This document shows, piece by piece, positions 29 to 20,344 of a stretch of DNA of 31,722 nucleotides. This DNA is from a virus. The position numbers were made by a program, and so were the translations under genes. Position 1 is the first letter of the stretch, and every line of letters starts with the position of its first letter. The notes under the pieces are model-generated. The model had not been told where the DNA came from, searched no databases, and worked only from the letters and a program-made list of their open reading frames with translations. Location: UHGV virus genome UHGV-0068509; one strand, 5' to 3'.

Positions 29-65
29 GCAATGTGTTTATTGAATAAAAAAATAAACACATTGC
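29..65. repeat. Perfect 14-bp inverted repeat with 9-nt AT-rich spacer just 3' of the tailspike stop; possible terminator or recombination-associated hairpin
   Basis: gcaatgtgtttatt (29-42) is the exact reverse complement of aataaacacattgc (52-65); AT-rich flanks. Confidence 0.4.
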
Positions 66-88: not shown

Positions 89-2473
89 TTAATGTACAAG
101 TACAGTGATGGTTACTTCCTTTGATTCATTTACTGATACTACCCTCCCTACGGCTTTACGATAATCTATAAATGATGGTTCTGATATGTACACCCCGCTT
201 ATGCCACCATTAGAATCTCTCTGTGGTATAAGATACTCGCCTGGATTTCCGCCGATGACATTAACAGGAACGCGACCACAAAAGGCTAAGCGGTCAACTT
301 TCTTCCTCTCCTCTTCTGAGGATGCTATCCATTGTTTGTATTCAGCACTCTCCATGTCTGGCTCATTATTTCTGGCCCACTCCTGCTCTGAATTCCACGA
401 TACAAGTTCGGCTTCATAGCTTCGGAAGTATTCAGCATAAACTGACTCTGCCTCTTCCTGTGACATCCCTGACCGAATCATAGCCGAGACCATAGAATAT
501 TCAGGTTTCACGGGTTTTTGTTTTCTGAGTTTCTTTTCCCATTCTGCCCATTCTTGCGATGGGTATTCTGGGCGCTCGCTTTGTAGCCATGTGTCACCGC
601 CAACAAGACATGGGTTGGTACTTTTTACCATGAAGCTAACTGCACTGTCATATCTGTCAGTGATATTCCCGTCCGCGTCAATTCCGCATATATCGCCTGG
701 CTTAATGTCTCCACAGCCTTCTGATTTGTAGAAATATTCAGCGTAATCAGCTCCGGAAGAATTAACTGTGCCAGCGCAGTTTATGCTCCTGTCCGTTGCT
801 GATGACTTTCCTACGAACATAACAGCGTCTGATGCGTTCGCACCTCCTGAGGCTTGTTGCCGTATGACGACCCCAGCTGCTCCATTGGGACCAAACTGTG
901 CGGCGATTTCGTTCACCCCCTTTCGGTTTGTTTGTGTGATGCTACCGGCAGGGTCAATGATAAGTACGTTGGTTTCCTCTCCAACACCATCAACCTGTGA
1001 CGCCAGCACAAATGCCGCAGCGTTGGGGGTTAGAATTTTGATACCGGACTGATCGTGGTCTGAGAAGAACCCATATGATGTAGCACCCCATGAGCGATAT
1101 GAATATGTTGAACCAGGCCAAACATCATGTGCTTTGCCAAACTTACCTACAGCCTGGTATGCGCTATCAACTATCTCATCAGGATTAAATGCATTGTTGT
1201 TGATAGCTTTATAAACCTGACTATCAGAACCTGTTCCGTCTTTATATAGGTTAAGCATCACCTCCATACCAACTGCAGACGTTGCAGCTGCATCTTCAGG
1301 AACTGTTACAACAGTATTATTCCCCCATACACGATATACAGGAGAGATATAAAGTGTTCCTGATGGAGTGCTCTGAGTTCCTGACGTTTTTTCATACCAT
1401 CCATCAACGGTGATGCTTGACGAATTAAACCCCCTAATAAGACCAAACCATGTTTTCGAAGATCCTATAACCACCGCGGTCATATTTATCCTGACCTTAG
1501 CCGGATCAATGGTAATACTAGATGCTCCTGTTGTGCTAAAAATAGCTCCAGTTAGCGTGTACAATGGCGGTAATGCAGTATTTTCAAAATATGTAGCAGC
1601 AGTATCTGTACTGCCGTATTGGGCCAGCGATTGACCGGTTCCGGCGCCTAGAATGCCGGTAAAATGCTCAGCATCACGAGTCGCAGCCACAGCCGTTAAA
1701 ACACATGCATCTTCAAAAACACCAAATGGTTGTTTTTGATGCTTTATTCCTCCATATCGGAACTCATAACCATCAGAAAAACTTCTATCAGATCTGTTAT
1801 ATGAACCAGGTATTAGCCCTGGAATTAGGAAATCAGCATTTTTCTCAATGATGTAATGCCCCTCTGATATCAGCCTCGTCATATCAGCAGAAGATGCTGC
1901 TTCAATGCCTTCTTTTACTGGCAGCCAAAATCCTGATGGCTCTTCATCGCTGGTTATGGTGTGCGGTATGGTTGCCGTATATCTATAAACGGTTGCGCTA
2001 CCAAGATGCAATACAACATCGCATGGGTTATTTATTGTTACTCCTGGTTTGAAATATCCAATTAAATTATATCCAGGAAGTTTACTGTATTTATCCCAAA
2101 GATTTAATAAGTTTATATCAAGGTAAGGAAACTTTGATGATGGATCATACTTCAGCACATTCGGAAAATAGAACTGCTGAGAACCATACGCATCATAAAC
2201 AGCCATAGAATGGCCTTGCACGGTAACGAATTTGGCAATCTGTCCGTTATATACCGGATATCCAGCAGCGTTAATGATGATTGGTTGCGAAACAGGAACG
2301 TGAGATCCGTCTTCGTTCTCCACATAAACCTGAATCTGGTTTTCAGGATTTACCGGGTCAGTGTCAATTTTACCGATATAAATTTTGCCATTGGCTACGG
2401 CTTTAAAAGAACGCGCCATAGTGAAGAGTTGCGAAGGCATGCTTACCACAACATTGGCTGTAATGTCTGTCAT
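89..2473 (-). CDS. Tailspike protein: P22 gp9-type N-terminal head-binding domain, divergent central receptor-binding region, acidic Trp-rich C-terminal extension
   Basis: 794-aa ORF; N-terminus [11 protein letters not shown]...[21 protein letters not shown]...[13 protein letters not shown] matches the conserved P22-like tailspike particle-binding domain as I recall it; last gene of the virion operon. Confidence 0.85.
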
Positions 2474-2530: not shown

Positions 2531-2555
2531 TAAAAAAACCCAGCCGAAGCTGGGT
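2531..2555 (-). terminator. Rho-independent terminator between the gp16-like gene and the tailspike gene
   Basis: Minus-strand hairpin ACCCAGC-TTCG-GCTGGGT followed by a run of 7 T. Confidence 0.6.
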
Positions 2556-2604
2556 CGTTGCGTTGGTTATCTGTCAGTAGTTATGTACTTAATTAATTAT
2601 TTAT

Positions 2605-4356
2605 CTATTGTTCTGCTGTAATTTGGCTTGAAAGTATAGGGCGTATCGCATTTGCAGCATTATTTAGCGCTCTTTCATAGGCTGGTGTTCCTGCTTTGGT
2701 GTTTGCCAAACGTAAGAGAGCATTCCTGGCCATAGGGCTTTCATAAACCCTCGACATAAGGCCAATCCCTGTTTCCCCAGCCAATAGCGCGCCTCCGGTT
2801 TTTAGGTTACCAATAACCCTTACCAAAGGCGCGAGTGTCATGCCAGTCTTCGTCACAACATTAGCCTCAGATGCTCTTTTGGTAGCATCGAGAATAGATA
2901 ACATCCCCTCTATCTCTTTTCCGTTCTTCCCACCAAATACAGTTTTAAACACCTGACCATTTGCTTGTTTTTGCAGCTTGCCAAGCTCGGTCATCATTTT
3001 CTGAGGGCTGTCACCTACCTTGTCAGCTATTTTGCTGATATATGCCGCCCTTAGCATGTCTTTACCTTTTTGATCGAGTTTCCCGTACAATCGAGCTATA
3101 TCTGACCCATATTGTCCATACACAATGGTATTTACAGCCTCGGGAGTTAAATCTCCTTTGTTTAGAACGTTTTTAAGGCGCGTTTGAGTTACATGTGTTG
3201 CCATTTTTGCATAATCAGCTTTTCCCGCTCTCCATGCTGAAGCATCTTTTGGGCTAAGTCCTTTCGCTATAGATTTACTAAGGCTATTGGTTAGCGAGTT
3301 ATAGACCCTGTCGACCATTGTTTGCGACATTGGTGGCAGAACTGTACGATCGCCTTTTACGTCAATGCGGAACTGAGTTCTCAGCTTATCAAGTAACTCA
3401 AAGGCATCATCTCCATTTGTTATCTCCTGAATGGCATTCTTATAATCATTAAGCGCAGAAATGGTCTGGGTGTCAGAAACACCTTTAAGTTTCCCAAGTT
3501 CGTTTACTGCTCCGTCGATAGCTCTTATGGCGCCACTTGTATCAACTGGCTTTCCAACCATTCTTCCTGACAGGCTGTTTAGTTTTGACTTGGCTAACGA
3601 TTTTTCCCTTGCAACGCCTGACTTTAGACTATCAACGACTACAGATGGATCGTAGTCGCCGTATTTTTCGGTGAAGCGATTAACAAGCTTGGTTCTGGCA
3701 TCCTGCTGTGCGGCTCTCATTGGTCCAGTACCAGCTATGACTCCTTCTGAGTAACCCTGCAGTTGATTGCCAAGTTTTGTTTTTGGAGGAACTACATCCG
3801 ATGTCATAACTGGTACATCTGCCGCAGCGGCACGCTTGAGCAATTGCTGATCTGCTGGTGATATTTCGCCACGAACAGCAGTAATTCCACGCCCTATTCC
3901 CTTTGCTGCTGCGGAAAGAACCCCCTGAGCGGCAAGGTTAACTCCGGCGTTTCTTGCTGCATTTTGTGCGAAATCGCCTTTCTGATTTGCGGCCTCTGCC
4001 AGTGATCCAATAGCCATACTTCCTGCCGTTCCAACTCCTGGAACTAAATACCCGCCAATTGTTTCTCCAGCTTGAGCGTAGGAGTCTGTCGGTCTGTCTA
4101 CTGGACGATAGACATCATCCAATACTTTTGGCCCGCCTAACCCCTGACTAATAGCGTTAATCAGGCTTGCACCGCCCTGCAGCACATCGAACGGAATGTT
4201 TACCAGGCCGCGACCGGCCTGCTCTGCGCTCTGCAACAGAGACTGCTCTTGCGGTTGAGCTGGCTGCTCATCAAACTGATCAAAGAAGTTACCCTCTGCC
4301 GCTGGAGTTTCCGGTTGAGGGATGGCTTCATCAAATTGGTCGAAGAAATTCGCCAT
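2605..4356 (-). CDS. Ejection (internal virion) protein, P22 gp16-like
   Basis: 583-aa ORF in the gp7-gp20-gp16 position directly upstream of the tailspike; N-terminal duplicated NFFDQFDE motif; Gly/Ala-rich. Confidence 0.75.
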   Translation of the reverse strand: MANFFDQFDEAIPQPETPAAEGNFFDQFDEQPAQPQEQSLLQSAEQAGRGLVNIPFDVLQGGASLINAISQGLGGPKVLDDVYRPVDRPTDSYAQAGETIGGYLVPGVGTAGSMAIGSLAEAANQKGDFAQNAARNAGVNLAAQGVLSAAAKGIGRGITAVRGEISPADQQLLKRAAAADVPVMTSDVVPPKTKLGNQLQGYSEGVIAGTGPMRAAQQDARTKLVNRFTEKYGDYDPSVVVDSLKSGVAREKSLAKSKLNSLSGRMVGKPVDTSGAIRAIDGAVNELGKLKGVSDTQTISALNDYKNAIQEITNGDDAFELLDKLRTQFRIDVKGDRTVLPPMSQTMVDRVYNSLTNSLSKSIAKGLSPKDASAWRAGKADYAKMATHVTQTRLKNVLNKGDLTPEAVNTIVYGQYGSDIARLYGKLDQKGKDMLRAAYISKIADKVGDSPQKMMTELGKLQKQANGQVFKTVFGGKNGKEIEGMLSILDATKRASEANVVTKTGMTLAPLVRVIGNLKTGGALLAGETGIGLMSRVYESPMARNALLRLANTKAGTPAYERALNNAANAIRPILSSQITAEQ

Positions 4357-20188: not shown

Positions 20189-20264
20189 TGGTGCCGGTTA
20201 ACGGATTTGAACCGCTACCTATTCACTTACAAGGCGACCGCTCTACCATTGGAGCTAAACCAGC
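20189..20264 (-). tRNA. tRNA-Thr (anticodon UGU), 76 nt with encoded CCA
   Basis: Hand-folded cloverleaf: 7-bp acceptor stem (one G-U), 4-bp D stem with GG in loop, anticodon loop CT-TGT-AA, T loop TTCAAAT, discriminator A, CCA. Confidence 0.7.
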
Positions 20265-20269
20265 ATGTT

Positions 20270-20344
20270 TGGCGGGACAGCGTGGACTCGAACCACGATA
20301 AGAAGGTTAACAGCCTTCCGTAATGACCTTTATACGACTGACCC
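20270..20344 (-). tRNA. tRNA-Asn (anticodon GUU), 75 nt with encoded CCA
   Basis: Hand-folded: perfect 5-bp anticodon stem, loop CT-GTT-AA, perfect T arm CGTGG-TTCGAGT-CCACG, acceptor stem with one mismatch, 4-nt variable loop, CCA. Confidence 0.6.

Follow-up and report, generated by a model that had tools for sequence, protein, structure and literature searches.

The 31,722-nt stretch of DNA analysed here (UHGV virus genome UHGV-0068509, in the following the window) encodes, at 89..2473 on the minus strand, a 794-residue tailspike that is probably built from three exchangeable modules and belongs to a P22-like (Lederbergvirus-type) temperate phage of enterotoxigenic Escherichia coli (ETEC). 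The open reading frame (ORF), taken from the ORF list and its translation, begins with ATG and ends with a stop codon at 89-91. An N-terminal P22-type head-binding domain is joined to the body of a rare depolymerase family, and this body is followed by a putative auto-chaperone domain distantly related to domain D4 of phi29 gp12. The protein matches PHROG 34132 over its full length, a group labelled 'unknown function', and its RefSeq name is only 'head-binding domain-containing protein'.

The C-terminal domain (residues 576-794; 92..748, minus strand; 219 residues, 24.8 kDa) is supported by fold, profile and motif as a distant relative of the phi29 gp12 D4 auto-chaperone, and is thus Peptidase_G2-like. 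Searches with residues 561-794 returned 49 homologous metagenomic proteins, with 33-67% identity in the locally aligned part, none of which carries a Pfam annotation. In an alignment of 24 family members, a conserved beta-rich N-terminal segment with the motif KSTNPxxVGGDxW and a conserved C-terminal segment (VDRIAFxGxVPVNV...IIVKV) enclose a middle segment that is variable in both length and sequence. As a reference set we used ten canonical G2 domains, picked singly from GenBank phages after a phi29-D4 locus search had yielded only near-identical phages; the set comprised phi29, Nf, SPbeta-like, phi105, three Staphylococcus phages, Carin-1 Dpo31 and two cyanophages. Aligned to this set by hhalign, the 24 family sequences gave a probability of 81-87% (P 5e-7 global, 1.2e-5 local), and an enlarged profile of 72 family sequences gave 91-94% (P 1e-6 local, 2.5e-8 global) over 149-180 columns. 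For the reversed and column-shuffled controls, P was 0.1-0.8. The domain also agreed with the D4 fold. The family hidden Markov model (HMM) reached a single PDB sequence, that of Dpo31 D4, at the DYAEYFE start and with a weak expect value (E) of 0.33.

The boundary of this domain contains the predicted autocleavage site and acidic catalytic pair, A575|D576-Y-A-E579-Y (734..751, minus strand, translating to ADYAEY). All 24 homology-found family members share D, Y, A, E and Y without variation, and hhalign places A575|D576-Y-A-E579 on S691|D692-F-A-E695 of phi29. The aligned motifs read GA|DYAEYF in the window, NTWS|DFAEYF in phi29 and TTYA|DYAEYF in Dpo31. The phi29 gp12 protein is reportedly cut between Ser691 and Asp692 after trimerisation, followed by ATP-dependent release of the domain. 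In the crystal of an isolated D4 construct of Dpo31, the traced chain begins at Asp664 (PMC13317679). By analogy, cleavage between A575 and D576 would yield fragments of about 61.5 and 24.8 kDa, with autoproteolysis as the predicted mechanism. A literature search for the DYAEY motif returned nothing relevant.

In a pattern scan of IMG/VR, 340 viral contigs were seen to encode a relative of the domain. DYAEY was one of the two search patterns, so the invariance of the motif in this set is partly by construction, whereas that among the 24 members is independent. The domain is terminal in 78 of the 78 viral-contig ORFs analysed, the distance between the Asp and the stop being 155-269 aa. The N-terminal parts in front of it are unrelated and measure 150-975 aa. 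Of the residues that immediately precede the Asp, 67 are Ala, 5 Thr and 4 Asn, with a single Leu and a single Val. Isolated phages that carry the domain are limited to one Vibrio phage and two Aeromonas phages, and none of the isolated P22-like phages does so. The only well-matching homologue from an isolated phage forms the C-terminal ~195 residues of a Vibrio phage 1.023.O protein (L016 1-2664) that is longer than 887 aa. This protein is annotated just as 'coil containing protein', is encoded next to the terminase gene and is also the top BFVD match.

The preliminary description of this DNA had likened the C-terminal ~200 residues to a helical, self-cleaving intramolecular chaperone with an acidic, Trp-rich composition. 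The likeness to a self-cleaving chaperone held, while the helical stretch proved to be a variable insertion in a domain with a beta-rich conserved core. The acidic Trp-rich stretch likewise exists, but is narrower than described, being confined to residues 630-725 (299..586, minus strand, from the translation), where 5 Trp and 21 Asp+Glu occur in 96 residues with an isoelectric point of 4.7. Four helices are predicted here with a per-residue confidence (predicted local distance difference test, pLDDT) of 80-97, lying between the conserved beta-rich flanks 576-629 and 726-794. The insertion is essentially absent from P0052 and P0053, two proteins that share the enzyme body, and the equivalent segment measures 38-149 aa in the 69 IMG/VR relatives in which both flanking motifs were located. 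E. coli B7A encodes a full-length 794-aa copy of the tailspike with 77% amino-acid identity to that of the window. Broken down by region, the identity is 96% in the head-binding domain, 87% in the enzyme core, 63% in residues 576-629, 38% in 630-725 and 52% in 726-794. Since the acidic Trp-rich stretch is only 38% identical to B7A and is variable or absent in relatives, it is the least conserved part of the domain and not its functional core. Speculatively, the insertion may form an extra bundle that stabilizes the trimer. A broader proposal is that the 'GA|DYAEY' domains constitute a distinct phi29-D4-like clade of self-cleaving auto-chaperones, missed by Pfam and PHROG, across hundreds of environmental phage fibres and spikes. 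The window would then hold the first member of the clade to be recognised on the tailspike of a P22-like phage, and the variable helical middle would serve a separate purpose, such as forming a trimeric bundle that replaces or modifies ATP-dependent release; taken as a whole, we find this proposal doubtful.

The body of the spike (residues 238-575; 749..1762, minus strand) was assigned to a rare family of tailspike depolymerases with one solved member, PDB 24qj. The entry 24qj_A, 'Tailspike depolymerase', matches residues 268-421 with an E of 1.2e-11 when searched with the single sequence. With family profiles, the match reached 2e-22 and 4e-124, the latter over nearly the whole length of 24qj. 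Identity between 24qj and the window body is ~30% or less, and the termini differ. We found neither a paper on 24qj in the literature nor its substrate, and the phage collection does not contain the phage from which it came. The rarity of the family is apparent from an exhaustive search of 1.84 billion representatives with phmmer, which found only 109 relatives of the body, four of them below 1e-30. Word-indexed homologue searches with the central domain returned four proteins only, with a single sequence and a profile alike. In 69 aligned body sequences (the window segment and 68 relatives), Pfam identified Peptidase_S74 in 14, PF12708 in 9, Tail_spike_N in 6, End_tail_spike in 6 and Head_binding in 2. 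PF12708 is the start of a pectate-lyase-like beta-helix and, where coordinates were checked, it sits just upstream of the homologous region. This adjoining position in the relatives supports a right-handed beta-helix for the body, and a pectate-lyase-like right-handed beta-helix is the most likely fold of residues 238-575. The only residue that is invariant across the body family is a Glu, E404 in the numbering of the full protein.

Different modules surround the body in its relatives. The DYAEY domain is present only in the six closest of them. Two of these six, P0054 and P0055, carry different N-terminal adaptors in front of the same body, chaperone and insertion. Such exchange of modules is the usual picture for receptor-binding proteins (PMC10408124). 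A second Head_binding tailspike (P0057, 557 aa) has a distant depolymerase core with 34% identity and no C-terminal chaperone module. P22-like phages thus use this depolymerase family both with and without the removable domain.

The N-terminal module is the P22-type head-binding (tail-attachment) domain, residues 1-113 (2135..2473, minus strand), identified by Pfam and PDB matches. Pfam Head_binding (PF09008) matches residues 1-112 with an E of 2.4e-66 and 221.5 bits (cutoff 24), and the PDB matches are 7sg7 (Sf6), 2xc1 and 8tvr (P22), and 1lkt. Similarity to the solved spikes of P22, Sf6 and HK620 ends at residues 113-130, with the P22 chains ending at 113. Among the PDB matches, no similarity to the P22 gp9 beta-helix was seen beyond the head-binding domain, and Pfam and NCBIfam searches with the whole protein and its sub-segments gave no family besides Head_binding. 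At the DNA level, a megablast search of 50,697 phage records found matches in isolated phages that cover only the first 329-340 nt of the gene, and these come from Sf6-, HK620- and CUS-3-like phages. The preliminary description was therefore right that only the first ~110 residues are P22-like, and its view of the protein as a chimera, in which a head-binding domain of P22 type is joined to an unrelated receptor-binding body, is supported. The tailspikes of Sf6, P22 and HK620 share the head-binding domain and the genome position with the window spike but have no sequence similarity to it past residue ~130. These three spikes are not known to have a cleavable C-terminal domain. Between the head-binding domain and the body lies a linker with a small N-proximal subdomain (residues 114-237; 1763..2134, minus strand), which is 91% identical to the B7A copy. 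A similar segment occurs in P0055, there downstream of the Tail_spike_N domain, and no family could be assigned to residues 114-237.

Taken together, these modules suggest a path of assembly that draws on phi29 gp12 and Dpo31. Homology shows that residues 1-113 attach the trimer to the tail; residues ~114-575 would form the receptor-binding and degrading body, a depolymerase of the 24qj type. Assembly may start with the association of three C-terminal domains, which would then serve as a template on which the upstream body trimerises. Once trimerised, each chain would cut itself between Ala575 and Asp576 by means of the invariant Asp576/Glu579 pair, presumably releasing the 24.8-kDa domain and leaving a mature spike of 61.5 kDa. 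The acidic Trp-rich helices at ~630-725 are an insertion specific to this lineage, placed within the variable middle part of the chaperone domain.

The known systems resemble this arrangement in different respects. Domain D4 of gp12, the pre-neck appendage protein of the Bacillus phage phi29 (PDB 3gqh/3suc; PF11962), is about 14-20% identical to the window domain. Its middle segment is ~50 aa, where the window has an acidic helical insertion of ~95 aa, and the residue before the Asp is Ser in phi29 and Ala in the window. The host phage in the window is moreover a Gram-negative P22-like temperate phage, unlike phi29. The tailspike depolymerase Dpo31 of the Cobetia phage Carin-1 (PDB 28nb) is a Gram-negative podovirus spike whose G2-type D4 is lost from the expressed protein (PMC13317679). 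Dpo31 and the window spike have an identical A|DYAEYF boundary motif. However, the D4 of Dpo31 is a canonical PF11962 member (E 6e-55, 43% identity to phi29 D4), whereas its counterpart in the window has diverged much further and contains the helical insertion, and the upstream domains of the two proteins are unrelated. The endosialidase tailspike of CUS-3, an E. coli K1 prophage, has the same head-binding domain (94% nucleotide identity) and a common logic of adaptor, enzyme and cleavable C-terminal chaperone. Its enzyme is a beta-propeller endosialidase and its chaperone a Peptidase_S74 domain, both unlike the window. Since CUS-3 combines Head_binding with Peptidase_S74, a cleavable chaperone on a P22-type head-binding spike has a precedent.

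The hosts of near-identical genes point to a receptor. Full-gene copies with at least 99% nucleotide identity were found in three of 5,426 complete E. coli genomes, those of TW10573, 503440 and 503829, and the TW10573 tailspike differs from the window copy by only three residues. Together with the B7A copy, these show that the ORF did not arise by chance. The spikes of temperate phages normally match the O-antigen of the lysogen. Both 503440 and 503829 are ETEC strains of serotype O148:H28 (PMC6446980, supplementary table). E. coli B7A, with its more distant copy, is also O148:H28, and the source of P0050 gives its name as 'E. coli O148'. A serotype for TW10573 was looked for and not found. 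Because near-identical copies occur in O148:H28 strains and spikes normally match the O-antigen of the lysogen, the O148 O-antigen is the likely receptor. It is probably also the substrate of the spike, judging from this association with hosts in a few genomes.

Several results weigh against the reading of the protein as a beta-helical O148 depolymerase with a D4-like chaperone. An AlphaFold2 model of residues 114-566, based on a five-sequence alignment, had a pLDDT of 35.5, and with a central-domain model of such low confidence the beta-helix fold is argued from the relatives. The Pfam model of the G2 domain, PF11962, gave no match to the window protein at E<=10 and reached 0.012, and no better, in two of 24 relatives, while the positive controls phi29 gp12, Dpo31 and S-SM2 scored 109-325 bits. 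Foldseek found no matches in the PDB, and the structure model of the C-terminal domain is a monomer where an intertwined trimer is the expected state. The link to O148 comes from a handful of lysogens, and other O148:H28 genomes lack the tailspike gene. PF11962 likewise had no match in P0054 and P0055 at E<=0.01. Because it misses these two proteins and the window domain and yet scores the controls, we regard the window domain as part of a divergent sister group of Peptidase_G2 that lies outside the current model.

Of the other readings, the most serious accepts the homology to phi29 D4 but keeps the domain in the mature spike, either as a distal structural or receptor-contacting knob or as an uncleaved auto-chaperone. 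The P22 spike has been described with an uncleaved auto-chaperone in its C-terminal region (PMC4690869), and weak SH3-like Pfam matches occur in 7 of the 24 relatives. The C-terminal domain is also the part that diverges most from B7A (38-63%, against 87-96% upstream), as receptor-contacting tips often do, although a discarded scaffold is equally expected to diverge fast. An invariant D...E pair at the exact domain boundary of the 24 homology-found relatives is hard to explain without cleavage. Furthermore, the domain follows the unrelated upstream parts in IMG/VR, though DYAEY was a search pattern there, and the two homologues that have been studied, phi29 gp12 and Dpo31, both lose it (PMC13317679). 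We therefore consider retention unlikely. That the domain is instead an endosialidase-type Peptidase_S74 chaperone with a Ser-Lys dyad, as the preliminary description had proposed, might be expected from the frequency of S74, the commonest C-terminal chaperone on spikes, from its occurrence in 14 of the 69 aligned body sequences and from its presence in the P22-like phage CUS-3. PF13884 gave no match at E<=10 to residues 516-794 and none in the 24 relatives, while the CUS-3 positive control scored 40.8 bits, and the S74 fold was not found. The S74 identity was rejected as the wrong family, given the hhalign probability of 91-94% and the aligned motif that mark the domain as G2/phi29-D4-like, and we give it next to no credence.

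The gene could finally be part of a decaying prophage remnant, its C-terminus being a fusion or non-functional sequence. The TW10573 prophage does look rearranged, with a truncated recT beside gene 16, and the gene is absent from the isolated phages in the collection. However, the frame is intact at 794 aa in five independent sequences, and the central part differs between the window and B7A by 129 synonymous versus 63 non-synonymous codons. Genes of the gp26, gp14, gp7, gp20 and gp16 types lie upstream, and the portal, terminase and coat genes match P22-like phages. In P0054 and P0055, two other N-terminal adaptors precede the same central and C-terminal modules, and the C-terminal domain itself is carried by the 340 viral contigs. 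A remnant is thus very improbable, and a functional three-module tailspike remains the preferred reading.

The genomic setting is P22-like, with Kapi1, E212 and CUS-3 as close relatives. Directly upstream of the tailspike gene lies a gene for a gp16-type DNA transfer (ejection) protein (2605..4356, minus strand; PHROG 770, E 6.5e-221), itself preceded by the gp20-, gp7-, gp14- and gp26-type genes according to PHROG assignments. The tailspike gene thus follows the gp7/gp20/gp16 ejection genes of the P22-like morphogenesis cluster. The 131-nt gap between the gp16-like gene and the tailspike gene has no ORF and contains an intrinsic terminator (2537..2556, minus strand) with an 8-pair stem (5 GC) followed by TTTTT. 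It had been pointed out earlier that only a terminator, and no immI or sieA, separates these genes. The observation is correct, but the arrangement is ordinary: in Sf6 the spike also follows gp16 with no immI, while the near-identical TW10573 spike sits behind an arc/ant immI module and CUS-3 has an immI region (mnt/ant) ahead of its spike. The missing immI thus reflects ordinary mosaicism. Directly past the tailspike stop codon lies an AT-rich inverted repeat (29..65) whose 14-bp arms (29-42 and 52-65) pair perfectly, at 100% complementarity, around a 9-nt loop. It probably acts as a bidirectional terminator, and a terminator is annotated at the matching position in Sf6.

Several side observations concern the surroundings of the gene. 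In Sf6, and probably also in TW10573, a convergent O-antigen acyltransferase gene ends at the position of the repeat, and the window stops before any such gene. In TW10573 (L001 763-3577), the neighbours of the gp16 gene are a truncated recT pseudogene and a gene of the Gp157 family in place of gp20/gp7, which makes the prophage look rearranged or partly deleted. On the 3' side of the TW10573 spike (L001 8474-9484) lies an acyltransferase-family gene, a possible O-antigen acetylase (cf. Sf6), followed by intS and tRNA-Arg. In B7A (L002 7467-8624), intS directly follows the spike, with no acyltransferase-family gene between them, and the TW10573 and B7A prophages share a common tRNA-Arg/yfdC site. 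Elsewhere in the window, ARAGORN and Rfam agree on adjacent genes for tRNA-Thr(TGT) and tRNA-Asn(GTT) at 20189-20344 on the minus strand, inside the P22-like genome.

The architecture proposed here is ordinary for phage proteins, would not surprise a specialist and leaves the understanding of tailspike assembly unchanged; its use is in the concrete annotation that it gives to a protein carrying the uninformative RefSeq and PHROG labels quoted above. The predicted boundary of the mature spike at Ala575 matters for expressing the spike as an O148-ETEC-specific depolymerase or diagnostic reagent, for which the C-terminal domain should be kept and its loss expected. More broadly, the analysis flags a sizeable family of phi29-type auto-chaperones that is unrecognised by current domain libraries. 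Because these libraries miss the domain, predictors of receptor-binding proteins mis-delimit the proteins of this family.

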